DNA of 64,000 bases from Candidatus Tayloriibacteriota bacterium (lineage in GTDB: Bacteria; Patescibacteriota; Minisyncoccia; Phycocordibacterales; PALSA-1337): contig JANNAN010000013.1 of NCBI GenBank assembly GCA_031384385.1, positions 6,015 through 70,014 on the forward strand. Direction: 5' to 3'. Positions 35,318-47,519 of this stretch are shown piece after piece. Within the stretch, counting starts at the first letter, position 1. The number at the start of each line of letters is the position of its first letter. The notes below the pieces were generated by a model that searched no databases, had not been told where the DNA came from, and worked only from the letters and a program-made list of their open reading frames with translations. The position numbers were made by a program, and so were the translations under genes.

Positions 35318-35386
35318 TTGAGTAGAAATTAATCAAACAAAAAAGCGTTGGTCAGACGCTTTGAAATTTTATGACCTGAGGAACTG

Positions 35387-35986
35387 CTATTTAGATTCCT
35401 CGTGAAGCTCGTCCATCTTTTTGTGGATTTCCTGAGCTTCCTTCAGGGTGATGACAAACGGATCGTCACTTTTCTCCGGCAATTCCAACTCGGAGATACC
35501 CGCACCGAGAAAACAATACTCATTTTCTTTCTGATCATAAGTCTCCCCAGGATCTAGTATCGTTCTCCCATGCCTCTTGATCGGTGTGCGCGTAGTCTGT
35601 CCACGCAGACTCCCCATCTTTTCCACCACCTCAAGTCGCAACTTCTCGATCTTACCTCGCACTTGTGCGACCCTCATCTTTTCGACCGTTTCCGCTGTGG
35701 GTATGTCGGTTTCCTTTTCGGGAAACAAACGGGGATCTACCGACCGAAGGATGGAGAGCAGATCGGTGAGGGATCGGTAGGTGACATACTCGTCAGTACC
35801 GAACTCTCCCGACTTCTTATTGGCTGTGGGATCGACTTTCACAGTGACTGCGTAGTCATCGTGAGAAGGGTCAAACCTTGACTCCTGAACCGTGACCCAG
35901 CGAGGATTTGTGATTTTCCTTACTGCATCATGGAAGTTGCCGATTGCACCGCTTGGGACACCTGCGATTTTCAATGTGATAACCAT
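35387..35986 (-). CDS. hypothetical protein
   Basis: 199 aa, GC-rich island composition, no motif. Confidence 0.4.
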   Translation of the reverse strand: MVITLKIAGVPSGAIGNFHDAVRKITNPRWVTVQESRFDPSHDDYAVTVKVDPTANKKSGEFGTDEYVTYRSLTDLLSILRSVDPRLFPEKETDIPTAETVEKMRVAQVRGKIEKLRLEVVEKMGSLRGQTTRTPIKRHGRTILDPGETYDQKENEYCFLGAGISELELPEKSDDPFVITLKEAQEIHKKMDELHEESK

Positions 35987-36045
35987 ACAAACCTACCTTT
36001 CTTTTTTGCATACGCACCGCGTATCGCAAATACTTACACCGTAAG

Positions 36046-36118
36046 TTCCGATTTCGTCCTCGTTCTCTACCACAAGGCAGAGGGACTCATCAGCGAGAAT
36101 AACATTCTCGGATCGAAA
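36046..36118 (-). ncRNA. hammerhead ribozyme (type III topology) HHR-1
   Basis: Minus-strand RNA: UUUCG-AUC|CGAGAAU..AUUCUCG-CUGAUGA-GUCCC..(extended stem II)..GAGGAC-GAAA-UCGGAA. CUGAUGA and GAAA cores, AUC cleavage triplet, three closing stems. Confidence 0.75.
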
Positions 36119-36124
36119 AGGTTT

Positions 36125-36574
36125 TTAGAGAACCTTTGAAACTCTTGATACCGCTACTATGCCAACGAATACGCACCAAATGGCAAGAAAGACGAAACAG
36201 AGTAGCACGACCGTTTTGCTTCTTCCATCGCCATATGCACAGTACAAGTCTGATCTTAGACCAGCTTCTTCATACATATAGAAGAATGAGCAGAAGATTA
36301 TCCACAGAAATGCAAATGATGCTGTCGTTGATACCATACCGTTGGTGATAAGCACGATCGTTCCAATGGGTATGAACCAAGAGGACCAGCTAATGACACC
36401 ATCGTACGGCAGAAGGTGATAGAGCATCCAAGCAGTTGCGCCTCGCCTTGGGTCCCACAGTACATTGCTGTACTTGCGGGAGTACTGATACAAACACCAC
36501 CATGTAACTGACAGTGTCCAAAGCAGAATAATAATCGTAATTTTCACAAAGAACTCCTTTCTCAAAGAATCCAC
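36125..36574 (-). CDS. hypothetical 4-TM membrane protein
   Basis: 149 aa with four hydrophobic helices. Confidence 0.45.
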   Translation of the reverse strand: MDSLRKEFFVKITIIILLWTLSVTWWCLYQYSRKYSNVLWDPRRGATAWMLYHLLPYDGVISWSSWFIPIGTIVLITNGMVSTTASFAFLWIIFCSFFYMYEEAGLRSDLYCAYGDGRSKTVVLLCFVFLAIWCVFVGIVAVSRVSKVL

Positions 36575-36637
36575 GACTTCATGTCATGAACTCTATAAAG
36601 TGGACATTTGAGGAAAATGTCCGAACCCCCGATTTGC

Positions 36638-37495
36638 CTAACTGTTGACAGCCTCGAGGAGCTTGTTCCAGTCTTTCGCGCCGGAAGGCGTGGAGCAATG
36701 ATTGGTGCATACCACCTTGACGTCACCCTTGGCAAAGCCGCGGAGACCATCGAAGGCGAATACGAACGGATCATCGTGATGGTTGCCGGCAGTGATAATG
36801 CCGATCTTCTTCACACCTTTTTGAATGGCGTGGAGCGCGATGATGGGTCCGTAAGGCATGACACCCTGACAGTTAACCATTGCCTGACCTCTCGGTCCCA
36901 TGCAAGCATAACCACCCTTGGGAATCATGCAGTCGGTGAGGACTACTTCCGGCTGTCGTTCAAGTGCGTCGAGCGCCTGATCGAATCCAGAAACGATTGT
37001 GAGATCGTATACTCCAAGAAGCTCCTTCGCCGAGGCGATATTTGCCGGATCATCTTCCACTACGAGAATGCGAGTCTTACCCGCAGTTCCGATGGCTTGA
37101 ACGATCACGTCATCCCTCCAATCATTGAAGGGTATCACGCCGGTCTTGTGAACGGCAACTTCACGGACACCTTCCATGAGTTGAGCGAAGATTTTCGCCT
37201 TGCTCGACTTTTGCAGTCTTCGAGCAATTGAAGCCGAGGCTTCATGAGGATCGATGGTCTTGTACCAGTCGTTTCCCTCTGGATGCGTCCAAGCGTCGAG
37301 GAGAATGACGTCGGCGTCAACAGCTTCCTTGATGAAAGCCTCAGCGTGATCTCCATGGAGATATCCGCCGAAGCCGACATAGGTGAGCTTCTGACCAGTC
37401 TTCTCTTCGAGATCCCGATGAACGACACCGCCTGGTCCATACAAAGGATCATTGGTGCCGTGATTTGCCATGCAATGAAGCAGAATCTTTTTCAT
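36638..37495 (-). CDS. hypothetical protein with central CheY-like receiver (REC) domain
   Basis: ILVVEDDPANIASAKELLGVYDLTIVSGFDQALDALERQPEVVLTDCMIP fits the REC consensus including acidic pocket and D-phosphorylation position. Flanking N- and C-regions unrecognised. Confidence 0.5.
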   Translation of the reverse strand: MKKILLHCMANHGTNDPLYGPGGVVHRDLEEKTGQKLTYVGFGGYLHGDHAEAFIKEAVDADVILLDAWTHPEGNDWYKTIDPHEASASIARRLQKSSKAKIFAQLMEGVREVAVHKTGVIPFNDWRDDVIVQAIGTAGKTRILVVEDDPANIASAKELLGVYDLTIVSGFDQALDALERQPEVVLTDCMIPKGGYACMGPRGQAMVNCQGVMPYGPIIALHAIQKGVKKIGIITAGNHHDDPFVFAFDGLRGFAKGDVKVVCTNHCSTPSGAKDWNKLLEAVNS

Positions 37496-37524
37496 TCGTT
37501 TCTCTTTCGTTGTTGATTGTTATG

Positions 37525-37603
37525 TAAAGAACTGAACTCTCAGGGTTCGCGACATCAGTCGTAAACCCAGTTGAGTCCCTGTAACCATTGCTAGTCACAG
37601 GGG
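37525..37603 (-). ncRNA. family-1 structured element E1 (two-hairpin motif, unknown class)
   Basis: Minus-strand: hairpin2-ACUCAACUG-GGUUUACGAC-UGAU-GUCGCGAACCC-UGAGAGUUCAGUUCUUUAC. Shares linear motifs and covarying 11-bp hairpin with six other copies. Confidence 0.55.
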
Positions 37604-37623
37604 TTGAGTGAGATTTCAGGTAC

Positions 37624-37983
37624 TCACTTCATAAACTCGAAATGGATCTCAGTGATCCAGTCGAAATCGAATTTAACCTCGCGTACAGTCAAACCCATTT
37701 TTGCCGCCTCCTGTTGGAGGATTTCTTCGGCATGTTTAAGTTTCTCAGCCTTGCCATTTCCTCGCAAGTACGCCGGAAAGACGATCTTTCCAGAGGTATT
37801 GAGGAAGCGTTCACACTCAGGTTTCTCGGCGAAAATGAGAAACTGATGATTCCAACCGAAGTACGCATACAGGTTGGTTGTGAGTGACGGCTGTGCTGGT
37901 CTCGGACGTTTGTCGAGCATCCTGTGGCACCTTTCGGTAACTTGCAACAGGTCATGATCTTGAAGTGCGCTTGCGTCTACCAT
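37624..37983 (-). CDS. hypothetical protein (start at MVDASALQD)
   Basis: ATG 37983 with AGGAG 6 nt upstream. The track ORF start at 38049 lies inside element E2. Confidence 0.4.
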   Translation of the reverse strand: MVDASALQDHDLLQVTERCHRMLDKRPRPAQPSLTTNLYAYFGWNHQFLIFAEKPECERFLNTSGKIVFPAYLRGNGKAEKLKHAEEILQQEAAKMGLTVREVKFDFDWITEIHFEFMK

Positions 37984-38013
37984 AGTTTTTATCTCCTGGT
38001 TTGATTGTTGATG

Positions 38014-38092
38014 TAAAGAACTACTGAACTCTATAGATTCACAACACATTCGTTATGAATCTAATAAAGTCGGGGAGGTTTTTGAAGTCTCC
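38014..38092 (-). ncRNA. family-1 structured element E2
   Basis: Minus-strand 11-bp perfect hairpin AGAUUCAUAAC-GAAUGU-GUUGUGAAUCU flanked by ACUUUAUUA and AGAGUUCAGUAGUUCUUUAC. Second hairpin GGAG..CUCC. Confidence 0.55.
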
Positions 38093-38148
38093 TCGATTTT
38101 GAAAGTTTTAGACTTGCGTCACCGTTACTTCACGGAGTGGGTTGACCA

Positions 38149-38361
38149 CTATTTTGTTTCGGTCTTCTCCACAATCACCATTGCGACATGATAGGTATGC
38201 ATTGCGCATGGCATCTGGAGTGGCTCCCGCATCTCACCCCAAGGGGCGATTGCGTAGGACGACGAAACAACCTTCCAGCCCGGCCCAAGTTTCTCAAGTT
38301 CTTCATTGAGTTCGGGCTCAGGTGTTGCATTCATCGTTTTAACGATAATGGTTTTCAACAT
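38149..38361 (-). CDS. hypothetical 70-aa protein
   Basis: Start MLKTIIVK chosen downstream of element E3. The track ORF begins inside E3. Confidence 0.3.
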   Translation of the reverse strand: MLKTIIVKTMNATPEPELNEELEKLGPGWKVVSSSYAIAPWGEMREPLQMPCAMHTYHVAMVIVEKTETK

Positions 38362-38424
38362 AAGAATAGTCTTTCTGTACTGGTGTATTGTTTCGGCACA
38401 CCTACTTGAAGCCGTTTTATATTC

Positions 38425-38504
38425 CAAAGAACTGAACTCTGAGAGCTCACAACGGATTTGTTGCGAACTCAGTAAAGTGCTCATTTTAGGTGAATGAGCA
38501 AAAC
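38425..38504 (-). ncRNA. family-1 structured element E3
   Basis: GGUUUUGCUCAUUCACCUAAAAUGAGC-ACUUUACUG-AGUUCGCAAC-AAAUCC-GUUGUGAGCUC-UCAGAGUUCAGUUCUUUG. Compensatory changes relative to E7 (G-C to A-U). Confidence 0.55.
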
Positions 38505-38517
38505 CGAATCGAGCAAA

Positions 38518-38925
38518 CTACTGAACCTTTCTCCAGCACAGAGCCGGATGTTCGCTCGGGCCACCACCGTGGTCGAGGTGATAGAAACATAGACCATCAT
38601 TCTGGTTGGCCAAGCCGAGGCTCTTCATTCGCCTGGCGTGCCTGCCGAGGTAGTATCCGATCCTATCGTTCATGTTTTCACGACAGTCATACAAAGTGAT
38701 CCATCCTTTGTACTTTCGGAACTCCTTGTGTTTGAAGATGCTCACATCCCGGATCTGCGCGGGGATGTGACCGGCAGCGTCGGATGCTTCCTTGGCATCA
38801 CGATGCGTTGACCGATCTAGGCCAGCCTTCGCTTTGAACTCTACGAGATAGTATTCCATACCATCGTGAGTGAAAAGCGTAGGTTGCGGAATTGCGGTGA
38901 ACTTCAGACTTTGCGTCGCATTCAT
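38518..38925 (-). CDS. hypothetical protein
   Basis: 135-aa ORF, no motif. Confidence 0.4.
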   Translation of the reverse strand: MNATQSLKFTAIPQPTLFTHDGMEYYLVEFKAKAGLDRSTHRDAKEASDAAGHIPAQIRDVSIFKHKEFRKYKGWITLYDCRENMNDRIGYYLGRHARRMKSLGLANQNDGLCFYHLDHGGGPSEHPALCWRKVQ

Positions 38926-38980
38926 TATTTCGTTTCTTTCTTGGTTGAGTTTGTTTGTGATTACTAAATTTGAAAGAGCT

Positions 38981-39029
38981 TTCTGTTTCGTCCTTCTGGA
39001 CTCATCAGTCGGAATACATTCCGAGACAG
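38981..39029 (-). ncRNA. hammerhead ribozyme HHR-2
   Basis: Minus-strand: CUG-UC|UCGGAA-UGUA-UUCCGA-CUGAUGA-GUCC-AGAA-GGAC-GAAAC-AGA. Minimal ~49-nt hammerhead with GUC triplet. Confidence 0.8.
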
Positions 39030-39099
39030 TCGGTCAGTAAAAATTTACCGACCATTCACACAATTTTTAGGTAGTGTGCGTACCTCTATGTGGTAGAAC

Positions 39100-39390
39100 T
39101 TATTTTCCTTTTGATTCGACCAGGGAAACGTAATTTTGAATCCCTTGTTTAACCAATTCTTCAATAAGTACCACCAACGGGCATGGATGATACTTTTCAG
39201 TATCCAATGCCATTGTTGCTTCCACAAACGCAACTGCGTCTGTGAATTTGTAACCTTCATCAGTTGGGACAATGAAGATCGTTTCTCTAACTTCCTCTCC
39301 AGCGATACTGGAGCCGTCATCAAACTCTCCTCGAGTTGGGCGGAAGCACAAGCTCACCCGACCTTCCTCGTTCACACGCAATCCCATCAT
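39100..39390 (-). CDS. hypothetical 96-aa protein flanked by two hammerhead ribozymes
   Basis: Start MMGLRV at 39390 just downstream of HHR-3. The track start 39456 lies inside the ribozyme. Confidence 0.4.
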   Translation of the reverse strand: MMGLRVNEEGRVSLCFRPTRGEFDDGSSIAGEEVRETIFIVPTDEGYKFTDAVAFVEATMALDTEKYHPCPLVVLIEELVKQGIQNYVSLVESKGK

Positions 39391-39416
39391 ATATATAAAG
39401 AGCAGTCGTTGTTGTG

Positions 39417-39497
39417 TTCTGTTTCGTCCTTCACCTTGGCTTCGTCTGAAGCACAAGGGGACTCATCAGTACAGATTATATCTGTAGACAGAAGGGG
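39417..39497 (-). ncRNA. hammerhead ribozyme HHR-3 (extended stem II)
   Basis: Minus-strand: CCCCUUCUG-UC|UACAGAU-AUA-AUCUGUA-CUGAUGA-GUCC-(long imperfect stem II CCUUGUGCUUC..GAAGCCAAGG)-GGAC-GAAAC-AGAA. Confidence 0.75.
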
Positions 39498-39576
39498 CTA
39501 GATTTAAATCTTGCCCCATTTTATGACAATTCTTGAGCAGGTAGTCATCATACCTTCTAGCACTGCATGCCAGCCT

Positions 39577-39641
39577 CACCATTTCAAACGGTGACATTCA
39601 CACTCTTCTGTAACAAAGGTTAGAGTGATCCTTTGGTAGTC
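39577..39641 (-). ncRNA. family-3 conserved element (copy a), downstream of stop codon
   Basis: ~65-bp block CACCAUUUCAAACGGUGACAUUCACACUCUU..AAGGUUAGAGUGAUCCUU..GUAGUC, ~85% identical to 41206-41275. Contains CACACUCU/AGAGUGAU inverted repeat. Confidence 0.45.
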
Positions 39642-39651
39642 TTTCCTACAG

Positions 39652-40017
39652 TCAGATGCCGCAGAGCGAACGTATCTTGCAAATTTCCCTCAATGTCTGT
39701 TGACGTCCCGGAAGTCCATTCTCAACCCATCCTCCAAATTGCTTCAGAGTGGTGAGAATTTCTTCCCGAGTGCCAGGTTCCCCGATACAAATGGGGATGA
39801 ACTGACGTTTGTCTTCAGACTTAGCGAGGAACTTGCAAGCGATCGGTATTGAGGATTTCACCTGAACCACGGGGATGGTGTTGTCATTGGTAGTGACATC
39901 CAATCCGTGATCATTGAAACCTCCGATTACCTGTACGCCAAATACTTTGGCGTACGCTTTCTCTAGCTCGGCACCGACGAATTCCTTCGTCACTCCCATG
40001 GTTTTCATAGAGTTCAT
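39652..40017 (-). CDS. hypothetical protein
   Basis: 121-aa ORF, no motif. Confidence 0.4.
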   Translation of the reverse strand: MNSMKTMGVTKEFVGAELEKAYAKVFGVQVIGGFNDHGLDVTTNDNTIPVVQVKSSIPIACKFLAKSEDKRQFIPICIGEPGTREEILTTLKQFGGWVENGLPGRQQTLREICKIRSLCGI

Positions 40018-40064
40018 AATATTATGAGATGTGGTACCGAGTTAGGCACCGTTGTTGTTTACTG

Positions 40065-40328
40065 TTATCCGTAGGTGACCGATGACTGTCGCAGAGATCG
40101 AATGAGAACAGGGAAGATGAGTAACGGATGCTTAAGCATGAATTTTGCTTTTTCTTTGCCTTGAAGGTGTCGAGCTGCGATGAGAAGAACAACTTCTCGG
40201 CTCATCGCTTCTTGACCCTCCACCTTGCATTCCGTAAATATCTTCTGAGCCTTTTCGTCTCCTTGGTGTCGCCTGACGCGATCCAGAATATCAGTAAGTA
40301 ACATTTGGTATTTCGTGTTGTTTTTCAC
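40065..40328 (-). CDS. hypothetical protein
   Basis: 87-aa ORF, helical, no motif. Confidence 0.35.
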   Translation of the reverse strand: MKNNTKYQMLLTDILDRVRRHQGDEKAQKIFTECKVEGQEAMSREVVLLIAARHLQGKEKAKFMLKHPLLIFPVLIRSLRQSSVTYG

Positions 40329-40494
40329 AAAGAGCTTTCCTCAATGAATCCACCAGGTCCAGCACACGCTGGCTGACGGACTCAATAAAGGACTTTTTTC
40401 AATACTTCTACGATGTTACTATTATAGCATAGTATATACTACTTGTCCAGTGTATTGTTAAATATAATGAACAGGGAAGTATGGCTTATTTTAA

Positions 40495-40546
40495 GGCTGC
40501 TTTCGTCGTTTTCGACTCATCAGTCTGGACAATATCCAGAGAGCAG
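40495..40546 (-). ncRNA. hammerhead ribozyme HHR-4
   Basis: Minus-strand: CUGC-UC|UCUGGA-UAUUG-UCCAGA-CUGAUGA-GUCG-AAAA-CGAC-GAAA-GCAG. Stem II GUCG/CGAC is a compensatory variant of GUCC/GGAC. Triplet CUC. Confidence 0.75.
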
Positions 40547-40596
40547 AGGTTGATTCCGTACAATCAACCTGATTAATGTGAATGCGGTTCGGCGCA

Positions 40597-40914
40597 TTAT
40601 TGACCCTTCAGAAAGGCCATCGCTTCGATCAATCCCATCCCGTGTGCCATTTTGCCATCGGGAAATGAATTGAAGATCTTGAAGCGATCAGATTCAGGAA
40701 TGGTGGCGGCTTTCTGTTTCCACCACAGAACCTGTGCAACGCGCTTGGATGTATTGTCCAAATACACCTGCACTTTTTCTGGTTCATCGGTCATGATGCC
40801 GTCGGCTTCCTGAACCGTCTTCACAAACTCCAAACCCCCGATAGTTGTGAAGATCTGAACGATTGCCTTATGGACAGGACTGTCCGGCGTCGCAAGATCC
40901 AGAAATATTTTCAT
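40597..40914 (-). CDS. hypothetical protein
   Basis: 105-aa ORF, overlaps upstream small gene by ATGA. Confidence 0.4.
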   Translation of the reverse strand: MKIFLDLATPDSPVHKAIVQIFTTIGGLEFVKTVQEADGIMTDEPEKVQVYLDNTSKRVAQVLWWKQKAATIPESDRFKIFNSFPDGKMAHGMGLIEAMAFLKGQ

Positions 40915-41051
40915 ACCTCTTTCCTCCAGTTTTGTTTTTGTTTGTTGCGGTTGTATCCACGGACACCTTTCGGAGTTCCGTAGGGTTTACCGATGAAAAG
41001 AGTTTGCTTGCGCACACTCTTCATCGCCTTCAACTGAATTGTATTGTTCAT
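40911..41051 (-). CDS. 46-aa basic protein (upstream partner in a two-gene cassette)
   Basis: MNNTIQLKAMKSVRKQTLFIGKPYGTPKGVRGYNRNKQKQNWRKEV. Track ORF extends further 5' into ribozyme-flanking sequence. Confidence 0.3.
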   Translation of the reverse strand: MNNTIQLKAMKSVRKQTLFIGKPYGTPKGVRGYNRNKQKQNWRKEV

Positions 41052-41118
41052 AGTAATCTGCCACTGATGATCGCGTGAGTGGCAAGTTGCTATGAACAAT
41101 ATTTTATTTAAAGAACTT

Positions 41119-41172
41119 TTCTGTTTCGTCCTTTCGGACTCATCAGTCGAGACTCGCATCTCGAGACAGAAC
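41119..41172 (-). ncRNA. hammerhead ribozyme HHR-5 (near-consensus)
   Basis: Minus-strand: UUCUG-UC|UCGAGAU-GCGA-GUCUCGA-CUGAUGA-GUCC-GAAA-GGAC-GAAAC-AGAA. GNRA loops on stems I and II, GUC triplet. Confidence 0.85.
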
Positions 41173-41205
41173 GAATCCTTTGATCCGTAGCGCTGCACGC
41201 CAACT

Positions 41206-41275
41206 CACCATATAGATACGGTGACATTCACACTCTTTTGAATAGAAGGTTAGAGTGATCCTTCTTTTTGTAGTC
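41206..41275 (-). ncRNA. family-3 conserved element (copy b)
   Basis: See 39577-39641. Lies between stop of 41289-41705 and HHR-5. Confidence 0.45.
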
Positions 41276-41288
41276 AGACAAGCTGACA

Positions 41289-41705
41289 TCATAACCAAGA
41301 CAGTTGTTCCCTTATATCCGGATTTCGCTGATCGAATACCGGATTTAAAGAGATTTCCTGTTTGGCTAGACTAGTGAAACCATCTACGCCGTCAACAACC
41401 TTTCCTTTGGAATCATGTCTGATACTCAGCTCAGTTCCTCCGGTAAAATTATTGGCTGCGAATTGTTTCAAGAAGGCTTGCACCTCCTCTCGCAATTTGG
41501 TCTCAGCAAAAGGTTCCTTATCTACACTCACAATCTCGTACGTATCTTCGGCGTATGAATTTTTTTCATCGCCACTCTGATCGTACCAGCTGTATGAGTG
41601 CTTCAGGTAAACCCTTCGGCCAGCAAGTTCAATGACAAATAGAGATTCACCTCCACCGCCATTACTTGCCCCCTCGTCATGACTACGAATAACGAACGCT
41701 TTCAT
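41289..41705 (-). CDS. hypothetical protein
   Basis: 138-aa ORF, Gly-rich N-terminal segment, no motif. Confidence 0.4.
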   Translation of the reverse strand: MKAFVIRSHDEGASNGGGGESLFVIELAGRRVYLKHSYSWYDQSGDEKNSYAEDTYEIVSVDKEPFAETKLREEVQAFLKQFAANNFTGGTELSIRHDSKGKVVDGVDGFTSLAKQEISLNPVFDQRNPDIREQLSWL

Positions 41706-41792
41706 ATCTCACCTCCTTTCGTTTTGTTGAGTGTTTATTCAATGAGGTGGAGGATTAGGGATAGAACCCAATCCTCCCAACGACACCCGAAC

Positions 41793-42065
41793 CTAATCAG
41801 GGTCGATCAATATGTGGGCGATCGCGAATGGCCCACCCCAGTCTTCACCGGGATTCACCATTCCATGATCGTGCGTGCACATCAAGGTGGTGGATTTCGG
41901 TGTCGGATAAAACTTTGCAGGATTATCCGTGAGAATCCAGTCTGCTCCTTCTGGAGACGAGACGAACTCCCAACCGTCGGAACGCAGCATTGTCTTGCTG
42001 CCTGTGATCTTTTCGATCAACTCCTCTTTTCCGACCGCGACTTCGATATACATTTTTCGGGGCAT
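41793..42065 (-). CDS. hypothetical protein
   Basis: 90-aa ORF immediately downstream of element E4. Confidence 0.4.
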   Translation of the reverse strand: MPRKMYIEVAVGKEELIEKITGSKTMLRSDGWEFVSSPEGADWILTDNPAKFYPTPKSTTLMCTHDHGMVNPGEDWGGPFAIAHILIDPD

Positions 42066-42088
42066 AAATTCTACTTGTTGATTGTTTG

Positions 42089-42169
42089 AAAAGAACTGAA
42101 ATTCTATGAATCTGCGACTTCAGTCGTAGACTCAATAAAGTGCAGATTTTGATGGAATCTGCTAAAACC
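42089..42169 (-). ncRNA. family-1 structured element E4
   Basis: GGUUUUA-GCAGAUUCCAUCAAAAUCUGC-ACUUUAUUG-AGUCUACGAC-UGAA-GUCGCAGAUU-CAUAGAAUUUCAGUUCUUUU. Confidence 0.55.
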
Positions 42170-42852
42170 TGACCTCTAGCAATAGTGATCCACACGGATC
42201 GTATTGAAAGAGTAATCCCACCGACTCCCCGAGTACCTCTGATATCTCCACTTTCGTGAAAGTGTCAGTAGGCGACTGCGCTCTCGCTTGGAGAGCCGAC
42301 GACCTGTGTCGTCTGCGAACTTCAGTGTTCGCGATCTCCTTCTGTGGGAGATATCGAGTACACCATCGGTGGTGCTCGATTTTACAGGCTTAAAGCCAGG
42401 AAACTGCACCGTTGCACTACCGTATGATGTACTCATATTTTTATTTCGGTTGGTTGTTTTTGAAATATTCGCAGTTCGGAATCACCATGAATGTTCCTTG
42501 ACCAGGTACACACTCACAACTATCCGATGATGTATAAGAGATGGGGTTGTTATCCCGCATGAGGTTATGCCTCTAATCTCCCGTACACCTTGTTCTTTCC
42601 AGGGATGCATGCCCACGTAACGAACGTGGATTGGTCGAGCATTCCCTTTCGACAACAACCTTTCGGTTGAGGTGAAAGAACTAGAGCCCTACAAAATTCT
42701 GCCAATCTACTGAAAACCCTTGCAAGTTTTCTAAGTAATCGGAGCTAGAACAGTGTAGACCCCACACAATGGCTTCTGCGTAGCCTGTGCATATAACTGT
42801 CCTTAATAATTAATTCAGACCAATTATATGCACAAGCATTTCAAAATTTATT

Positions 42853-42931
42853 TAAAGAACTAAACTCTTTGGGCCAGCAACATTGTTGTAAGCCCAATAA
42901 AGTGCAGATTTTGATGGAATCTGCGAAAACC
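42853..42931 (-). ncRNA. family-1 structured element E5
   Basis: Same hairpin-2 sequence as E4 (GCAGAUUCCAUCAAAAUCUGC). Hairpin 1 GGGCUUACAAC-AAUG-UUGCUGGCCC. Not followed by an ORF for >400 nt. Confidence 0.5.
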
Positions 42932-43005
42932 ATTTGCTTTTCGGGGTTGATTATTGTCCGATAGCAGTGCGACTCTTTTTTGTTAGGAAAAGAGCTAGAG
43001 AAACC

Positions 43006-43395
43006 TTAGTAATCAAGAGGGTGGCATCTGTGCCCGACGCTCTCGCCCCATTTGTTTCTTTCAATCGGAGATTCGAGACCTCCAGACCGATAGAGACATT
43101 TGGTACGCGAGACCGCCAAGGCTTTGATGACATCGTCTCCGATCGTCCCTCGACGCACGAACTGCTTGCGCAAGCGGCGATATTCACGCGGGTTCTTGAT
43201 CAAGCCTAAGCTCTCACAAGTATCCCCGTAGTGACTACCCCGATTGTCGACAGCAATTGTGTGCCTGAAGAACAACCGTCGACCCTCGACCTTGAACGAG
43301 ATGACCCTGTAAGGGATCAGGCTCGCCCAATGGTGGTCCCTCGTGAACCTCTCCGTATGGATTTTGATTTCCATGGTTTGATTCGTTTTCATAGT
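43006..43395 (-). CDS. hypothetical protein
   Basis: Start taken at MKTNQTMEIK inside track ORF 43006-43416. Basic, no motif. Confidence 0.35.
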   Translation of the reverse strand, partial: TMKTNQTMEIKIHTERFTRDHHWASLIPYRVISFKVEGRRLFFRHTIAVDNRGSHYGDTCESLGLIKNPREYRRLRKQFVRRGTIGDDVIKALAVSRTKCLYRSGGLESPIERNKWGESVGHRCHPLDY

Positions 43396-43631
43396 TTCTC
43401 TATTTTTAATGTGCAAATTGGGCTGGCACCAGGGCTAGACTTCTTCAAGTGGCTAACTTGATAAAGCTTTCGCCGTGATGCCAGGAGAGTTTTTTGCGGG
43501 CTCTCAAACCGCCACATAGTACGACCGGCCAAGGTCTTCCTTGCTATATCTCCGTCTTTCAGGAGCTTCCAAGTGACCCTTAGAGCCCTTGGCTGATTTT
43601 CAGCAAATCTCATGCTCGCTACTTCTCGCAC
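43389..43631 (-). CDS. hypothetical protein
   Basis: 80-aa ORF, weak. Confidence 0.25.
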   Translation of the reverse strand: MREVASMRFAENQPRALRVTWKLLKDGDIARKTLAGRTMWRFESPQKTLLASRRKLYQVSHLKKSSPGASPICTLKIEKL

Positions 43632-43804
43632 TTTCGTGCAGTAGCTTCACACAAGTTCTCTGGTCGCGTGCCAGAGGGGATAGTACCGCCAACCCGGATG
43701 GGTCCGTATAGCATCTCCCTTCGGCCAAACACCATGTGAGTGTTCTGCCCTATGGGTATTCGAATTTCGAGTACCCATTTCGACAGAACACAATTTCAAG
43801 AAAC

Positions 43805-43859
43805 TTCTGTTTTCGTCTTTCAAGACTCATCAGTCGGAATACATATTCCGAGAACAGAG
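43805..43859 (-). ncRNA. hammerhead ribozyme HHR-6 (1-nt insertion at cleavage triplet)
   Basis: Minus-strand: CUCUG-UUC|UCGGAAU-AUGU-AUUCCGA-CUGAUGA-GUCU-UGAA-AGAC-GAAAAC-AGAAG. Stem II GUCU/AGAC compensatory variant. Extra U and extra A suggest a slightly degenerate copy. Confidence 0.65.
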
Positions 43860-43931
43860 AGACGATTTGCATCATCCCAGTAGTTTCCGCTCACCAAGCG
43901 CCCTGGAGCTACCCCAGAGAATTACGGGAGT

Positions 43932-44294
43932 TTAATGACTTCCATGGTCAGTCGAAGCGAGAACACTACGGTGTACCCACTGCACGGCTCCAAAGCCGGT
44001 GTCGTAGGATCTCTCGTAGTACACTGTTGCGTTTACATGCACAGGCTGGCCGTTGGTGAAGCCAGTCTCACCGGGAAAAAATCCCTTTTTGCCTTTGATT
44101 TTTCCTTCGAGAAAACGGACTTCGATTCCGTTCGCGCTCACCTTGGAAACAATTCCGGTGGCACTCGCTTCCTCACTCCATTTTTGTGGAGTAGCCAACT
44201 TTTTTGGTAAAGTGGCATAGAAACCGAAACCGATCAGGGCAAAGCCCAGAACAACCAAGAGAACCGCTAATGTCTTCTTCATAGAACTCTCCAT
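43932..44294 (-). CDS. hypothetical secreted/membrane-anchored protein
   Basis: Signal peptide/TM MKKTLAVLLVVLGFALIGFGFYA. Confidence 0.45.
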   Translation of the reverse strand: MESSMKKTLAVLLVVLGFALIGFGFYATLPKKLATPQKWSEEASATGIVSKVSANGIEVRFLEGKIKGKKGFFPGETGFTNGQPVHVNATVYYERSYDTGFGAVQWVHRSVLASTDHGSH

Positions 44295-44301
44295 TTTAAT
44301 T

Positions 44302-44380
44302 TAAAGAACTGAAATCTATGAATCTACGACTTCAGTCGCAGACTCAATAAATTGATCATTTGAGGATTAATGATCAAACC
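44302..44380 (-). ncRNA. family-1 structured element E6
   Basis: Fills the whole intergenic space. Hairpin 2 UUGAUCAUU..AAUGAUCAA (different sequence, same fold). Hairpin 1 AGUCUGCGAC-UGAA-GUCGUAGAUU. Confidence 0.55.
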
Positions 44381-44381
44381 G

Positions 44382-44636
44382 TTACCCCATTTTGCACCGC
44401 AGGATTTTGCGGCAACCTCTTGCGAGAAGGTCACTCAGCCATGCTGCCCAGAGCGAACGTCGCCAGAAGCGCCGAAGCAGAAGGTATATAACCAGCGCCT
44501 CGATCACCAACGCTACCACAAGACACACGAGTGTCAGACAGTAGACGAAGGTTTCCGGAAATATTTGCCCCAGAGTAGCCTGCGTAAGTTTGTAGAGCAT
44601 TTCCATGCTCTGTCGCATTATTTCATTGAGTTGCAT
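44382..44636 (-). CDS. hypothetical small membrane protein
   Basis: 84 aa with one long hydrophobic helix. Confidence 0.4.
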   Translation of the reverse strand: MQLNEIMRQSMEMLYKLTQATLGQIFPETFVYCLTLVCLVVALVIEALVIYLLLRRFWRRSLWAAWLSDLLARGCRKILRCKMG

Positions 44637-44700
44637 AGTGAGCGAAGCTCAATTCTTGAGCGTCATTCACTACACAACTCTAATGTAAAGAACCGCAGAA

Positions 44701-44775
44701 GTATCTGCACTATGCCGCGCCTCCGTTTTTTTAATATAATTATATAGTTTATGAGGCGCGAGATAGTGCAGACAC
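44701..44775. repeat. large imperfect palindrome (23-bp arms, AT-rich 29-bp centre)
   Basis: GTATCTGCACTATGCCGCGCCTC ... GAGGCGCGAGATAGTGCAGACAC. Confidence 0.5.
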
Positions 44776-44783
44776 ATTTTTAT

Positions 44784-44862
44784 TAAAGAACTGAACTCAA
44801 TGGATTCACAACATCAGTTGCGAACCCAATAAAGTGCTGATTTTGAGAAAATCAGCGAAAAC
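44784..44862 (-). ncRNA. family-1 structured element E7 (most upstream copy)
   Basis: GGUUUUCGCUGAUUUUCUCAAAAUCAGC-ACUUUAUUG-GGUUCGCAAC-UGAU-GUUGUGAAUCC-AUUGAGUUCAGUUCUUUAAU. Confidence 0.55.
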
Positions 44863-45540
44863 TGCGCGCGATGCCTCATCCTAAGATCACCGTTAGGTGA
44901 TAGCCAGTTATTCAGCAAAGCTGTTACTGGTGATGAAAGCTGGTGGAGGCTCAATGGCCACAACCATCACATTTTTATTTAAGGCTGTGTACACCCACTC
45001 CAATTTGTCCTTGGAGTATTCATGATTATTTTTTCGTACCCTCATGACTGGACGGAGTGGACTAGCAGGTAGCTGTTGCTACGACTTGATGTGTCAAATT
45101 CCCGAAGGAACCAAGACTTCCATCATCTGCTATCCACCCATATTTTTTAGGTACTATGGGGTCGCGACACTCCCTGTACCATATTTAAATCCAAATTATT
45201 TTGATTCAAATACGGTACAAGGAGAAAAACTTATTTCAAGTGAACTGTTTACATGTCAATCGTTCTGGGGTGTAGTATAGCAGATACAATAATTTTGTCA
45301 AGTATAATTAACACTTTATACCTAAATACAGCAAATATAGCCCTATAAATATGGATATTTAAGCTATATAAGAGTTATCAAGAAGTGACATATTATAAAT
45401 AATTTTGACAAAGTCAAAATGTAATTTGAAATAAAATATTTCTGTTAAACAATAAAAACATGATAAAAAGGCATAAAATGAATGTTTTCTTGTATCTATG
45501 GCTTAAAATATGGGGTTTATTATGAAAATGACAATAAAAC

Positions 45541-45568
45541 TTGACAAATACAATACATTTGCTATTAT
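45541..45568 (+). promoter_or_regulatory. near-consensus sigma70-type promoter (TTGACA-16 nt-TATTAT) reading rightwards
   Basis: TTGACA at 45541-45546, TATTAT at 45563-45568. Confidence 0.45.
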
Positions 45569-45669
45569 AGTCATGGAAGTGAGTGGTGAGCAGTACATGC
45601 TCTTAAAAGAGTGCCATTCACAATCCCATTAACAAGGAGGACACAATGAGCGACTAGAATGTCGGTAAG

Positions 45670-45710
45670 TACCGTCTTCTAGTGGACCTCATTGGCACTA
45701 GAAGACGGTA
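45670..45710 (+). other. perfect 15-bp inverted repeat hairpin (no U-tract) downstream of promoter and mini-ORF
   Basis: TACCGTCTTCTAGTG-11 nt-CACTAGAAGACGGTA, preceded by AAGGAGG-ATGAGCGACTAG (M-S-D-stop). Confidence 0.45.
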
Positions 45711-45937
45711 TTGAAACCGTTCAAGTCGGATCCTCCGAGTAGTATGGGAAATTGAAAAGAAAGGAAGGTAGGTATGTGTGATTAGCTCAAAAACCGCAGT
45801 GTGTGTTGTCGTGACCGAAAATTCGGAAAAGATCAACATGAAGAAAACTCCATCGGCGAATATTGATCACATTAGCGCTCTGTCAAACAGCGCCTGAAGG
45901 TCTCGATCAAAAGCTAGTTCCCAGGCTCCAATCGTCT

Positions 45938-46696
45938 TTACGGTTGGAGCCTCTTCTTTTTCTCATCAAAGCCAACATTGAAGATACTTCTGAATGTTTC
46001 TGCGAATTCCTTACTTCTTATAAAAATACCAGAAAGTTTTTTGCCAAGAATTGCAATTTTAACACGGTCTTCACAGATTGATATATCACATAATATTGGA
46101 TACTTATCTGCATCTACCTTCACCCTCTCACCGTCTTCACTTGTAGGGACTTCTCCATTTTTGTAAGTATACATTACTTTAGATTTGATGTTTTTACCTA
46201 GGCGCATACCTCGATATCTATCTCGCTCTTGTTTCGAAAATATTTCATCAACTAGATCCTTTGAGTATATTAAATAGCTGATGGCGTTTTCATTTTGTCC
46301 AAGAAAAAACTCTTCATGTAGACTTACCAATCCATCTCGACCTTCAAAATATTTTACGATAGGTTTTTCACCACCCTCTCTCTGAACACTCTTTATTTGA
46401 GGAATGACATCCTTTAATTTCTTTGACTGTTCATCAAGCATTATTTTTCGCTGCTCAACATATGTCTCTAATCTTTCTGGCGGCTCAGCTTGGTAATGAG
46501 TTTTCTTGCCAACTGTGGTTTCGGTCACCAGACCTTTTTTTGCAAGAGATTCCAACACGACATAGGTAGTCGATCGATTTAATTTGGTCTTTTTTGAGAG
46601 ATCAAGCACAGAGCTGTTCTCCATAGAAAGCAATGATATATAAACAATTGCCTCCTTCTCGCTCAGCCCGATGTCTTGTAGGTATTTTTCCAACAT
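45938..46696 (-). CDS. TrmB-family transcriptional regulator
   Basis: N-terminal HTH LGLSEKEAIVYISLL..SVLDLSKKTKLNRSTTYVVLESLAKKGLV typical of TrmB. AT-rich host-like composition. Confidence 0.6.
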   Translation of the reverse strand: MLEKYLQDIGLSEKEAIVYISLLSMENSSVLDLSKKTKLNRSTTYVVLESLAKKGLVTETTVGKKTHYQAEPPERLETYVEQRKIMLDEQSKKLKDVIPQIKSVQREGGEKPIVKYFEGRDGLVSLHEEFFLGQNENAISYLIYSKDLVDEIFSKQERDRYRGMRLGKNIKSKVMYTYKNGEVPTSEDGERVKVDADKYPILCDISICEDRVKIAILGKKLSGIFIRSKEFAETFRSIFNVGFDEKKKRLQP

Positions 46697-46720
46697 GCGA
46701 TTATATTAACATTGAAATCC

Positions 46721-47023
46721 TTAAAACGGAAGGGTCCCTGATAACTGGGGTGGTTCAACGAGATATTTCTCAATCAAATAAATCTCCTGCAAAAGACTGA
46801 CATAGTGCTTCTCATCCAGCTCATCATTTTTGAATTCTACCTTCTGATTTCTTTCGTTCACTTCAAGATAGATTCGACGTTTCTTATCACCAAAATCATA
46901 TAGTGTGAGTATGGTAAAAGATCCATCAAGTTTTTCGTTATACCAGATGATGGCATACTCGCCACGCCAGATGTGAGCATTTTTTCTTGCATCTTTAAAC
47001 GGATCAATGTTATACAAAGGCAT
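46721..47023 (-). CDS. hypothetical protein
   Basis: 100-aa ORF co-directional with the TrmB-like gene. Confidence 0.4.
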   Translation of the reverse strand: MPLYNIDPFKDARKNAHIWRGEYAIIWYNEKLDGSFTILTLYDFGDKKRRIYLEVNERNQKVEFKNDELDEKHYVSLLQEIYLIEKYLVEPPQLSGTLPF

Positions 47024-47119
47024 GTGGTATAATTACCATACTAATTCAAAAGTAAGTAATGTCCTTCAGCCAACTGGCAGATACTTTATGGGAGTAGAAG
47101 TAAATGATAATATATATCT

Positions 47120-47437
47120 ATGACTGACGAAGAAAAAAATGGAATATGGGCAGAACTAGAAAAAAAATCTCCTGATTTGATCAAGGCTTTTCTATCGCTT
47201 AAGAACGAAGATGAGCTAAAGGCATTTTTTAGAGATCTTATGAGTGAAAGAGATTTACGAGAGTTTGCGATGAGGTGGGAGGTGGCGAAGAAACTAGACG
47301 CCGGTACTCCATTTTCGCAGATTCAGGAAGAATCTGGTGAATCACCAGTAACAATCACAAAGATCAACCGATGGTTGAAGGAAGGTTGTGGTGGATATAA
47401 AATGATGATTGATCGACTCAATGGTGATCAAAAATAA
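47120..47437 (+). CDS. YerC/YecD-family TrpR-like protein
   Basis: FAMRWEVAKKLDAGTPFSQIQEESGESPVTITKINRWLKEGCGGYKMMIDRL matches the YerC/YecD helix-turn-helix family signature (RW.VA..L..G..Y..I...G.S..TI.R....L..G.GGY). Confidence 0.6.
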   Translation: MTDEEKNGIWAELEKKSPDLIKAFLSLKNEDELKAFFRDLMSERDLREFAMRWEVAKKLDAGTPFSQIQEESGESPVTITKINRWLKEGCGGYKMMIDRLNGDQK

Positions 47438-47519
47438 TTCGCACTTCCGCAAATTAAAGTATAGACTAAGGATTGATTCAGTCAGTTCTTTTTAACAACT
47501 CAACCAAAGGGAGGCTCCC

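Follow-up and report, generated by a model that had tools for sequence, protein, structure and literature searches.

A structured RNA element with a boxA-like tail in the intercistronic gaps of a bacterial small-gene array

The intercistronic sequences of a bacterial small-gene array contain a real, previously uncatalogued structured RNA, here called E. The array lies in the window, which is the whole 64,000-nucleotide stretch of Candidatus Tayloriibacteriota DNA that was analysed. Because E sits in slots that can also be filled by ribozymes and carries a tail matching boxA, its probable role combines RNA processing with anti-termination; it is possibly a new ribozyme. An earlier note had described seven copies, E1-E7, as a structured RNA of unknown class. 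Its observation was confirmed, while its interpretation is partly supported.

The seven minus-strand elements were found at their positions with the stems as quoted, and E0 and the variant Ex bring the number of copies in the window to nine, all on the minus strand (Table 1). A covariance model, R1, was trained on eight of these copies, with Ex left out. The training copies scored 60-99 bits with R1, and the untrained Ex was recovered at 33 bits (E=1e-4); a second model, R2, gave it 41 bits. Scores on the reverse strand were 20 bits or less. The metagenome search with a covariance model that had been suggested earlier recovered 71 distinct copies from the window, approximately 36 metagenome contigs and one Candidatus Saccharibacteria MAG.

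Table 1. Element E copies and associated features of the array
Feature	Position	Strand	HP2	Lower stem	Upper hairpin	boxA-like sequence	Remarks
E7	44776..44866	-	44856-44836	ACUU 44835-44832 / GAGU 44798-44795	44827-44802	GUUCUUUA 44791-44784	R1 99 bits, R2 90 bits
E6	44294..44385	-	44375-44354	AAUU/GAUU	44345-44320	44309-44302	covariance model; C-G to A-U compensatory change in lower stem
E5	42845..42934	-	42924-42904		42895-42871	42860-42853	covariance model
E4	42081..42172	-	42162-42142		42133-42108	GUUCUUUU 42096-42089	covariance model
Ex	40320..40409	-	absent	CCUU/GAGG	40383-40346 (extended, 16 bp)	GCUCUUUG 40335-40328	boxA-like sequence overlaps GUG start codon
E3	38417..38509	-	38499-38479		38470-38443	GUUCUUUG 38432-38425	covariance model
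E2	38006..38104	-	38094-38072 (weak)		38062-38035	38021-38014	3-nt linker insertion
E1	37517..37612	-	37602-37577	ACUC/GAGU	37568-37543	37532-37525	
E0	36539..36632	-	36622-36602		36593-36567	GUUCUUUG 36554-36547	outside the coordinates of the earlier note
Type III hammerheads (six)	43859-43805, 41172-41118, 40548-40495, 39494-39416, 39032-38980, 36112-36052	-				GYUCUUU after three (41116, 39403, 38979); degenerate GUUUCUU after a fourth	among the E copies
Long hairpin	44687..44775	-				GUUCUUUA 7 nt later, 5' G at 44693	after E7; near-perfect, ~23 bp
Transcription unit	35342..45301	-					carries the E copies; ~18 small same-strand ORFs
Promoter-like site	45301-45274	-					TTGACA-16-TATACT
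Promoter-like site	40449-40421	-					TGGACA-17-TATAAT
Terminator-like hairpin	35362-35342						
TrmB-family regulator gene	45938..46696	-					directly upstream of array

The pairing statistics bore out the claim of a conserved RNA family with covariation. Standard pairs make up 90.2% of the paired cells across the 71 copies, compared to 71.4% in shuffled alignments and about 40% when the partners are slid, and double-sided changes were seen in all seven HP2 pairs and 12 of the 18 HP1 pairs. For the 25 proposed pairs in the window copies alone, the corresponding values were 87%, 78.5% and 28-42%, with 10 pairs altered on both sides. The top pairs by mutual information over the 71 sequences were all proposed pairs, and this analysis gave no pseudoknot or other long-range signal. 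G-U pairs account for about 9% of paired cells and would read as A-C mismatches on the other strand; the structure therefore belongs to the sense-strand RNA. No Rfam family, known ribozymes included, matched E at E<=10, in agreement with the earlier failure to place it in a known self-cleaving class.

Two hairpins and a tail make up the element. HP2, 7-13 bp long and unconstrained in sequence, begins approximately 10-25 nt past the upstream stop codon and joins HP1 without a spacer. HP1 begins with a 4-bp lower stem, ACUY/GAGU, whose sequence is almost fixed, followed by a small internal loop in which an A, a U and an A hardly vary. Its upper stem is typically 11-12 bp, covaries freely and is mostly capped by a tetraloop. 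Of 59 copies, 52-59 keep each of the nucleotides A, C, U, A, U, G and A, G, A, G, U of the lower stem and internal loop; the loops of both hairpins are unconserved. Several readings of the earlier note changed here. The GGUUUU start is not conserved in the wider family, and ACUUUAUUG (replaced by ACUCAACUG in E1), thought to be single-stranded, contributes ACUY to the lower stem, with compensatory changes in E6 (AAUU/GAUU) and Ex (CCUU/GAGG). Of the two conserved segments offered as an unpaired ribozyme core, one is thus a helix strand and the other matches boxA, which also follows hammerheads and twisters.

The tail carries GYUCYUU in 61 of 68 copies, and its nearly invariant alignment columns read AGUUCUUU. 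The gap from HP1 to GYUCUUU(A/G) is 3-4 nt. The published boxA consensus is GYTCTTTAANA (PMC5725501), a functional example is GTTCTTTAAAA (PMC7862264), and one boxA from an rRNA spacer is TGTTCTTTAACA, with a boxB stem-loop upstream whose helix lacks sequence conservation among rRNA operons (PMC2666751). NusB-NusE reads 8 nt, depends critically on G2, C5 and U6 and accepts either G or A at position 9; its dsRNA-binding surface adjoins the boxA site (PMC3177189). The E tail agrees with this 8-nt core at every position, including Y at 3 and R at 9, the reference being published boxA, which may differ from the host's own. In thermodynamic ensembles the boxA core is only moderately accessible (mean unpaired probability of 0.51).

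The earlier note had regarded GUUCUUUA as a conserved tail of E. Its conservation held up, but it is not specific to E: in related arrays, 14 of 19 hammerheads and both twister ribozymes have the same boxA-like sequence after them. The tail is thus an independent module. In one sister array (L166) the motif was found after both twisters and one hammerhead, and in another (L164) after three hammerheads; outside the intercistronic sites it occurs once in L164 and not at all in L166. The long hairpin after E7 is a third kind of helix-plus-boxA unit, and the same hairpin again follows an E copy in array L152. All units have the boxA-like sequence 3-9 nt past the end of a helix, which is the lower stem in E, stem III in hammerheads, P1 in twisters, or the 23-bp hairpin itself. 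A CA-rich spacer, a Shine-Dalgarno sequence and a start codon come after the motif. In 61 of 68 copies the motif is followed by the start of a same-strand ORF, at a median distance of 32 nt, and in 63 of 68 an ORF ends upstream of HP2, at a median distance of 26 nt.

Arrays of this type occur in Saccharibacteria-like (CPR) bacteria and are led by a TrmB-family regulator gene. This gene is on the strand of the array in the window, L152, L164 and L166 and is divergent in L169, and the order of TrmB and then array recurs in L152, L164, L166 and two further contigs. The island in the window has a GC content of 41-48%, compared to approximately 30-34% in the housekeeping parts, and its untranslated, structured intercistronic stretches reach about 400 nt. 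Ex lies approximately 25 nt downstream of the internal promoter. The array proteins had no Pfam match and no informative PHROG match.

Sister arrays were also fetched through a protein homologue, independently of E. These arrays again contain E, hammerheads and twisters in equivalent and even orthologous intercistronic slots, a stronger context than the alternation with hammerheads pointed out earlier, which was itself confirmed. Ahead of one orthologous gene (56-68% identity), L164 has E, L166 has a twister, and the window has a hammerhead plus a small ORF. The gene after E1, which encodes a 285-aa CheY-like protein, is preceded by a hammerhead in both L164 and L166. Since HP1 fills the slot of a hammerhead or twister, we infer that it marks a site of RNA cleavage.

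Our best reading, though tentative and a little less likely than not, is that E is a modular intercistronic cassette on a polycistronic transcript, consisting of an upstream 3' hairpin, HP1 as the probable cleavage site and a boxA that reloads antitermination. HP2 would be the protective 3'-terminal hairpin of the upstream cistron; it is absent exactly where a promoter replaces that cistron, in Ex. HP1 would most likely be cut by a host endoribonuclease, either an RNase III-like enzyme acting on the internal loop or RNase Y acting at the junction of HP2 with HP1, and could stay on the downstream mRNA as a 5' stabilising hairpin. A gene for RNase Y is present in one host contig. On the nascent RNA, GYUCUUU(A/G) may recruit NusB-NusE (S10), by which a termination-resistant RNA polymerase would be re-formed for the next cistron, in parallel to the second boxA of the rRNA 16S-23S spacer. 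Counting against processing, HP1 has approximately 16 bp in two segments, which is short for a classical RNase III substrate. Also, the conservation of the lower stem and internal loop exceeds the need of a plain helix, and a specific protein site and a catalytic core fit it equally.

The catalytic option would make the HP1 core (ACUYNAYUG, upper stem, NNAGAGUUY), possibly with HP2, a new class of small self-cleaving ribozyme that cuts the polycistronic RNA as the replaced hammerheads and twisters do, with boxA as a separate part. Pistol, hatchet and twister-sister were discovered in neighbourhoods of this kind. The shared slots, even orthologous ones, the lack of a match to known ribozyme families and a near-invariant lower stem and internal loop beside freely covarying helices, a pattern typical of catalytic cores, all favour it. 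We nevertheless consider it unlikely: the architecture is very simple, amounting to two independent hairpins with a single small internal loop, neither hairpin loop is conserved, the 71 sequences gave no long-range or pseudoknot signal, the longest conserved "unpaired" stretch is explained as boxA, HP2 is wholly missing in Ex, and the upper stem ranges from 8 to 19 bp. Another explanation is that E is never cut. HP1 would be a boxB-like helix that together with boxA forms a repeated antitermination site resembling nut or the rRNA leader, HP2 mere punctuation, and the ribozymes of sister arrays a source of an equivalent basal helix, with cleavage as an extra. Ex fits this well, because it has HP1 and boxA right after a promoter with no upstream cistron to separate, and HP1 may thus act there uncut. 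The helix ahead of every boxA-like sequence, the boxB stem-loop preceding boxA in rRNA spacers (PMC2666751) and the contiguous dsRNA and boxA sites of NusB-NusE (PMC3177189) point the same way. However, two different classes of self-cleaving ribozyme take the place of E at orthologous positions, suggesting cleavage as the selected function, rRNA boxB lacks sequence conservation (PMC2666751) whereas the base of HP1 is near-invariant, and an intact RNA should need one loading site per transcript. We regard this explanation, too, as improbable.

It is more doubtful still that GUUCUUU(A/G)A is a leader element of the array mRNAs unrelated to Nus factors, such as a translation enhancer or a binding site for an array protein. 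Its location upstream of start codons, before the CA-rich spacer and Shine-Dalgarno sequence, would suit such a role, and in the chromosomal flanks that were covered no tRNA or RNase P RNA gene had the motif upstream. Opposing this are the full match to the 8-nt NusB-NusE core of published boxA (which may not be the host's), with its tolerated Y and R, the constant position after a helix, as in rRNA boxB-boxA units, and the long structured intercistronic stretches, which are the type of RNA that needs protection from Rho. A role at the DNA level, whether as a terminator-promoter cassette (HP2 and a U-rich tail terminating, the conserved flanks forming a promoter) or as a mobile element of MITE or integron attC type, is very improbable and already largely refuted. 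HP2 of E7, E5 and E4 did pass a lenient terminator scan, and E recurs between small, cassette-like genes in an island acquired horizontally. On the other hand, about one third of the copies have ACUCAAYUG rather than a U-tract right after HP2, and the stretch following HP2 always begins with AC. The promoter alternative of the earlier note fared poorly as well: a sigma-70 scan of the island found just two strong minus-strand promoters, neither within a full E, and the only match in any E was a marginal 9-of-12 in E6. Loops of 3-12 nt leave the conserved blocks without fixed spacing, which further weakens a promoter reading. The G-U content and low reverse-strand scores also speak against a DNA element, as do the compensatory differences among copies of one array, which are not recent identical insertions, and the confinement of copies between same-strand ORFs without dispersal through the genome.

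E in part resembles several known systems. Pistol, hatchet and twister-sister share its genomic neighbourhood and strand, its size (approximately 50-60 nt when HP2 and boxA are not counted) and an internal loop flanked by conserved nucleotides, but E has no covariance-model match to them at E<=10 and no pseudoknot or multi-helix-junction signal. The nut sites of phage lambda, which combine boxA and boxB, and the put RNAs of phage HK022, with two hairpins each, act in cis on the nascent transcript to make RNA polymerase termination-resistant for downstream genes. They resemble E as hairpin elements of a mobile element, with boxA optional, and antitermination by E is our proposal. In lambda nut, boxA comes first and boxB second, with a boxB loop conserved for the N protein; in E, by contrast, the hairpin precedes boxA, the loops are unconserved and no N-like protein was identified among the array proteins. 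Intercistronic RNase III processing hairpins are known from the early and late mRNAs of phage T7 and from Bacillus phage SP82, and are left at the mRNA ends once cleaved. Like E, they are repeated, conserved in shape, placed between cistrons of one long transcript and built of upper and lower stems parted by an internal loop. HP1, for which cleavage is a conjecture, is shorter (approximately 4 plus 11-12 bp), has a near-invariant lower stem, comes coupled to boxA and can be exchanged for self-cleaving ribozymes.

For the tail, the closest parallels are the rRNA antiterminator, with its boxB-boxA units in the leader and the 16S-23S spacer, and the boxA-dependent Nus factor sites upstream of suhB and CRISPR arrays, since the GYUCUUU(A/G)A core of E is identical to published boxA variants. 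Unlike the rRNA antiterminator, E units have no recognised boxC, their helix is conserved at its base and internal loop, where boxB is free in sequence, and the partner helix in E arrays may be a hammerhead or twister. Nearly all protein-coding cistrons of an E array also have such a unit ahead of them, with as many as 13 in 10 kb, and we know of no described precedent for this repetition of boxA. Both systems have a stem-loop directly upstream of boxA within a long transcript that is highly structured, in part untranslated and processed into pieces, presumably so in the case of E, and rRNA operons have a second boxA after the first processing region.

Reading of window positions 37000-45500 confirmed the seven minus-strand elements of about 80 nt (E1-E7; the element is called E here) with the architecture that the earlier note had described. 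A repeat finder grouped an extra copy, at about 36583-36626, with these seven; this copy, E0 (36539-36632), falls outside the span in which the seven had been recognized. A covariance model built from the eight window copies (R1) was run on the entire 64-kb window with filters off. The eight training copies scored 60-99 bits, and an untrained ninth copy, the variant Ex (40320-40409), scored 33 bits at E=1e-4, where E-values are rough because they come from a short calibration. No further site in the window exceeded 20 bits, and the opposite strand at the E sites reached only 16-20 bits with R1. The scores on both strands, together with E0 and Ex, show that E is real, strand-specific and more widely spread than first recognized.

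The window is low-GC bacterial chromosome, with about 30-34% GC in housekeeping regions, and its housekeeping genes include those for ClpB, topoisomerase I, UvrA, UvrB and SerRS. The E island, at about 35.3-45.3 kb, has 41-48% GC and about 18 small ORFs, every one on the minus strand. Six type III hammerheads interleave with the nine E copies, as expected from the alternation with hammerheads noticed earlier. A TrmB-family regulator gene adjoins the array upstream on the same strand. The array proteins gave no Pfam match and no informative PHROG match, with the sole exception of a weak receiver-domain match in a 285-aa protein (CheY-like, encoded downstream of E1), and the island had no megablast match among GenBank phages. 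The array is surrounded by a larger, mobile-looking region (window about 26000-35300 and 45900-50000) containing Phage_rep_O, AAA_24, a ParB-like gene, an IS with an rve transposase, a ThsB-type TIR protein, and TrmB and Trp-repressor-like regulators. On other contigs, an integrase, a CCA-adding enzyme and tRNA genes were seen near the array.

The structure of E was assessed using an alignment of the eight window copies with three helices: the 5' hairpin HP2 (7 bp), a lower stem ACUUUAU/AUAGAGU added here, and an 11-bp upper stem. Standard pairs filled 87% of cells, compared to 78.5% with shuffled 3' partners and 28-42% with slid partners, and both sides had changed at ten pairs. With 71 distinct copies from the wider set, 90.2% of 1767 cells were paired, compared to 71.4% (shuffled) and 34-43% (slid). 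Both-side changes were found at 7 of 7 HP2 pairs and 12 of 18 pairs of HP1 (lower stem, internal loop and upper stem), with as many as five or six kinds of pair at one position, although counts of compensatory cells overstate the independent events because many metagenomic copies come from homologous islands. These figures bear out the claim of a conserved structured RNA with covarying hairpins. The proposed pairs ranked top in a mutual-information scan with APC correction, and the same scan of the 71-copy set gave no extra long-range or pseudoknot signal. G-U pairs make up about 9% of paired cells, and the opposite strand would read A-C at these positions; this share and the low reverse-strand scores place the structure on the sense RNA. 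For the same two reasons, the alternative of a simple DNA-level repeat, which the earlier note had allowed for, does not hold.

HP2 has 7-13 bp, its sequence falls into many unrelated types, and its end always abuts a conserved ACU. The 5'-side columns are a near-invariant A-C-U followed by Y-N-A-Y-U-G, and the 3'-side columns are N-N-A-G-A-G-U-U-(C)-A, next G-U-U-C-U-U-U, next A or G. The true lower stem is 4 bp, ACUY/GAGU, with compensatory variants AAUU/GAUU (E6), CCUU/GAGG (Ex) and CUUC/GAAG (one metagenomic copy). Above it lies a small internal loop, roughly 3x2 to 4x3, with invariant A, U and A. The upper stem ranges from 8 to 19 bp, with 58 of 71 copies at 10-12 bp, and usually ends in a tetraloop whose sequence is not fixed; neither sequence nor length is conserved in the loops of HP1 and HP2. 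All copies are on the same strand as the flanking ORFs. An upstream same-strand ORF ends a median of 26 nt ahead of HP2 (63 of 68 copies), and a downstream one starts a median of 32 nt past the tail (61 of 68).

Outside the window, a strict degenerate pattern matched one genome, a Candidatus Saccharibacteria MAG with three copies in a row, and a pattern of the two conserved flanks matched 40 metagenome contigs from peat, lake and groundwater. R1 found 72 copies (59 distinct) in 38 of 41 loci. The covariance-model search of metagenomes that the earlier note had proposed was extended with a second model from the wider copy set (R2), which found 84 copies (71 distinct), the window included. In IMG/VR, the loose pattern ACTTTATTG-N25-50-AGTTCTTT gave at least 120 matches, all due to chance (for example, an LRR-repeat gene in contig L011), and none of the 80 loci listed was scored by the covariance model at E<=1. 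Stricter patterns gave none and then one chance match within a 2000-aa ORF. By these pattern results, the family is not seen on recognized viral contigs. An Rfam cmscan of 35500-46500 at E<=10 placed no ribozyme family on any E copy, whether hammerhead, twister, twister-sister, pistol, hatchet, HDV-like, hairpin or other, in agreement with the earlier failure to recognize a known ribozyme class; the only ribozyme matches were hammerheads at other positions. No Rfam 15 family of any kind matched E at E<=10. A full-text literature search found no paper with the E tail sequence, and the literature found on hammerheads or twisters with the CPR, or on hammerheads with boxA, does not describe such arrays. 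The single parts (boxA, hairpins and ribozymes) are already familiar, whereas the E hairpin family and the arrangement of a structured cutter and then boxA before every cistron both appear to be undescribed.

The tail of E reads GYUCYUU in 61 of 68 distinct copies. The columns A-G-U-U-C-U-U-U are present in 52-57 of 59 copies, with A or G next (26 each), and this GYUCUUU(A/G)A tail leads into A- and CA-rich sequence. The boxA consensus is GYTCTTTAANA (PMC5725501), the rRNA-spacer boxA is TGTTCTTTAACA and is there preceded by a boxB stem-loop (PMC2666751), and an experimentally active boxA is GTTCTTTAAAA (PMC7862264). In the NusB-NusE-boxA structure, 8 nt are read, with G2, C5 and U6 critical, U8 stacks on a conserved Phe, position 9 tolerates G or A, and a dsRNA-binding surface of NusB-NusE adjoins the boxA site (PMC3177189). 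The positions read by NusB-NusE are all conserved in E. By its sequence, the E tail is thus a match to the boxA core, as represented by these published forms. It lies on the sense transcript, upstream of the RNA that it would protect and beside a stem-loop. The distance from helix end to motif is 3-4 nt in E and 5-9 nt in most ribozymes. It is longer for one hammerhead of the window, at 18 nt, and for a hammerhead in the related contig L166, where it is about 30 nt and includes an extra hairpin. The mean unpaired probability of the boxA core is 0.51, compared to 0.26 in HP1 and 0.46 downstream. The motif is strongly enriched on the strand of the array: GYTCTTT occurs 15 times on the minus strand of the ~10-kb island versus 33 times in the rest of the window with both strands counted; outside array intercistronic sites, it occurs once in L164, another related contig, and never in L166.

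The window also has a boxA-like UCAGUUCUUUUUAACAAC with no E hairpin (47440-47520, plus strand), about 30 nt upstream of a plus-strand gene (47520-48518) with a weak phosphoribosyltransferase match. It comes after an ORF at about 47121-47438, the counterpart of a Trp_repressor-family gene in contig L121, and may serve as a Nus site of its own, separate from the array.

Of the 19 distinct hammerheads in the window and related loci, 14 have the same tail motif downstream, mostly within 5-9 nt of stem III. Downstream of E7, a boxA-like GUUCUUUA (5' G at 44693) also follows a near-perfect 23-bp hairpin, which is an ideal RNase III substrate and which follows an E copy in contig L152 as well (downstream of 5585). 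The conserved 3' "single-stranded" segment is therefore not specific to a catalytic core of E. The suggestion that the conserved single-stranded segments form a ribozyme core is not supported, since the 3' segment is a module common to hammerheads and the hairpin and ACUY is paired with GAGU.

Sister arrays were retrieved by homology to the 285-aa CheY-like protein and not by E in order to avoid circularity. On the contigs with homologues, a leader of about 1.2 kb again lay between a TrmB gene and a small-gene array, and E copies were present in three of these contigs (see table). L164 also has hammerheads. L166 has two type-P1 twister matches that are under the gathering score of 67.2, yet have E=6e-11 (59.3 bits) and 1e-4 (37.2 bits) and occupy intercistronic slots of the TrmB-led array; they are probably genuine divergent twisters. 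In the L164 and L166 sequences read, GTTCTTT(A/G) stands after each hammerhead and each twister. The window gene 40597-40914, which is itself preceded by a hammerhead with boxA and a 46-aa ORF, has orthologues in L164 (68% identity) and L166 (56%), and directly upstream of these are E with boxA and a twister with boxA, respectively. Upstream of the CheY-like gene, the window has E1, and L164 and L166 both have a hammerhead with boxA. These comparisons of orthologous genes indicate that E fills the slot of two different classes of self-cleaving ribozymes.

Locations of E copies, twister matches and other sites in the window and sister arrays
Feature	Location	Strand	Remark
Island-head promoter-like site	window 45301-45274	-	TTGACA-16-TATACT with TG, sigma-70 scan
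Internal promoter-like site	window 40449-40421	-	sigma-70 scan
Terminator-like hairpin, island end	window 35362-35342
Near-perfect 23-bp inverted repeat	window 44700-44775	-	GUGUCUGCACUAUCUCGCGCCUC ... GAGGCGCGGCAUAGUGCAGAUAC, directly after E7
E copy	L164 8960-9052
E copy	L164 9383-9474
E copy	L164 10638-10735
E copy	L166 4169-4263
E copy	L169 9968-10071
Type-P1 twister matches	L166 4701-4811, 5303-5381	+	37.2 and 59.3 bits

Several other explanations of E were examined. The earlier note had also considered a promoter, and this did not stand: strong minus-strand sigma-70 sites were found only at the two promoter-like positions in the table, and the spacing within E is variable. The scan for -35 and -10 hexamers at 16-18 bp spacing gave a total of 20 sites, not above the 16.4 +/- 4.3 of shuffled sequence. 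HP2 as an intrinsic terminator, a G+C-rich stem with a U-tract directly after it, was rejected as a general explanation since the sequence after HP2 always begins with AC and not with a U-tract; 20 of 59 copies carry C at the fourth position and 27 of 59 carry A or C at the fifth (the ACUCAAYUG type), and only three of nine window copies passed a lenient terminator scan. A combined terminator-promoter was rejected on the sigma-70 scan, the columns after HP2 and the variable spacing. Integron attC sites and MITEs were rejected as well. Such elements carry inverted core sites at their ends (RYYYAAC...GTTRRRY), or terminal inverted repeats and target duplications, and their structure is symmetric between the two DNA strands. 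In E, AAC/GTT adjoins the loop and not the ends and is unconserved (GAC/GUC in E6, E4 and E1), G-U pairs are common and the reverse strand scores low. A k-turn in the internal loop was rejected by hand because the unbulged strand has no GA directly 5' of the upper stem. Covariation supported neither a pistol-like pseudoknot joining the HP2 loop to the internal loop nor pairing between the boxA tail and the 5' flank, which is unconserved.

We propose that E is a modular cassette in which HP2 would close the upstream cistron, HP1 would sit in the cutter slot, and boxA would re-arm RNA polymerase via NusB-NusE, much like the second boxA of the rRNA spacer. The assignment of HP2 to the upstream cistron is supported by Ex, in which a promoter replaces the upstream gene and HP2 is absent while HP1 and boxA are kept. 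For the putative cutter of HP1, our first choice is a host nuclease, given the simple architecture, the absence of tertiary covariation, the likeness of HP1 to phage intercistronic processing hairpins and the RNase Y encoded in one carrier contig. In bacterial RNase III sites, dsRNA runs mostly without interruption for about 20 bp or more, and the scissile site often lies in an internal loop; HP1 is borderline in length by that measure (a 4-bp lower stem plus a 10-12-bp upper stem in 58 of 71 copies). Self-cleavage by HP1 is a serious possibility, as suggested by its slot equivalence with hammerheads and twisters and by the invariant nucleotides around the internal loop; the same simple architecture and lack of tertiary covariation argue for the nuclease instead. 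It is rather unlikely that the HP1 core would prove to be a new class of small self-cleaving ribozyme, a third interchangeable cutter in CPR arrays where every cutter is followed by boxA. On that reading, boxA would re-arm the polymerase against termination after each co-transcriptional cut. A purely boxB-like role, with HP1 left uncut, is possible. In lambda-type nut sites, boxA comes before boxB, and boxB has a conserved GNRA-like pentaloop recognized by the N protein, whereas the loops of E are unconserved and its order is hairpin and then boxA.

If the proposed cassette is correct, these arrays would represent a natural operon design: a cutter, which may be a ribozyme or the E hairpin, would free each cistron from the polycistronic RNA, and the cistron's own boxA would re-license transcription. 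This would link self-cleaving ribozymes to Nus-factor antitermination and assign a concrete and testable role to the hammerheads and twisters of bacteria, a long-standing question. It would also bring protein-coding mobile islands of the Candidate Phyla Radiation, a little-studied group, under boxA control. Earlier new ribozyme classes came from this kind of genomic neighbourhood, and the E hairpin is a well-defined candidate, with 71 distinct natural variants of about 55 nt. Even as a mere nuclease or protein-binding site, E is an uncatalogued RNA family fit for Rfam.

Other conserved elements were observed in the arrays. The ~400-nt untranslated leader from promoter P1 to E7 (window 44880-45215, minus strand) contains a conserved block, GGUrCAGGGAGUnUCGCGACCCCAUAGyAC, that recurs within the L166 array (4866-4900) and, more diverged, in L164 (about 8628-8665). 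The block had no Rfam match and is probably another structured RNA. A repeat, D10 (GAAGGAUCrCUC..CCUUC hairpin ... GUCACC ... GCGUGAG/GGUGAG ... GCAGYG), is found in the window (41180-41263 and 39560-39633, minus strand), L164 (7540-7650 and 8400-8480) and L166 (4110-4170). It lies between a stop codon and the next hammerhead (window and L164) or E (L166) and may belong to the same cassette system as a 3'-UTR module. Some cistrons that come after E or a hammerhead carry a recurrent motif, GGCUUYAARYAGGUGYGCC...CACCAG, between boxA and their Shine-Dalgarno sequence; it occurs in the window (38365-38410, minus strand), in L164 (7796-7835) and downstream of E in contigs L148, L160, L125 and L130. 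The array also includes two untranslated minus-strand stretches, each about 400 nt long, at 43390-43805 (after a hammerhead) and 42436-42850 (after E5). They have strong hairpins and an extra GUUCUUU at 42681, and may hold further ncRNAs or unannotated small ORFs. Matches to two known RNA families were seen on related contigs. A LOOT RNA (RF03000; 86.9 bits) is at 4187-4307 on the minus strand of L127, a peat metagenome contig, on the opposite strand from an E copy about 4 kb away. A sub-threshold AdoCbl riboswitch match in L152 (8280-8433, plus strand; 45.7 bits versus a gathering score of 50) adjoins the TrmB gene of a related island.
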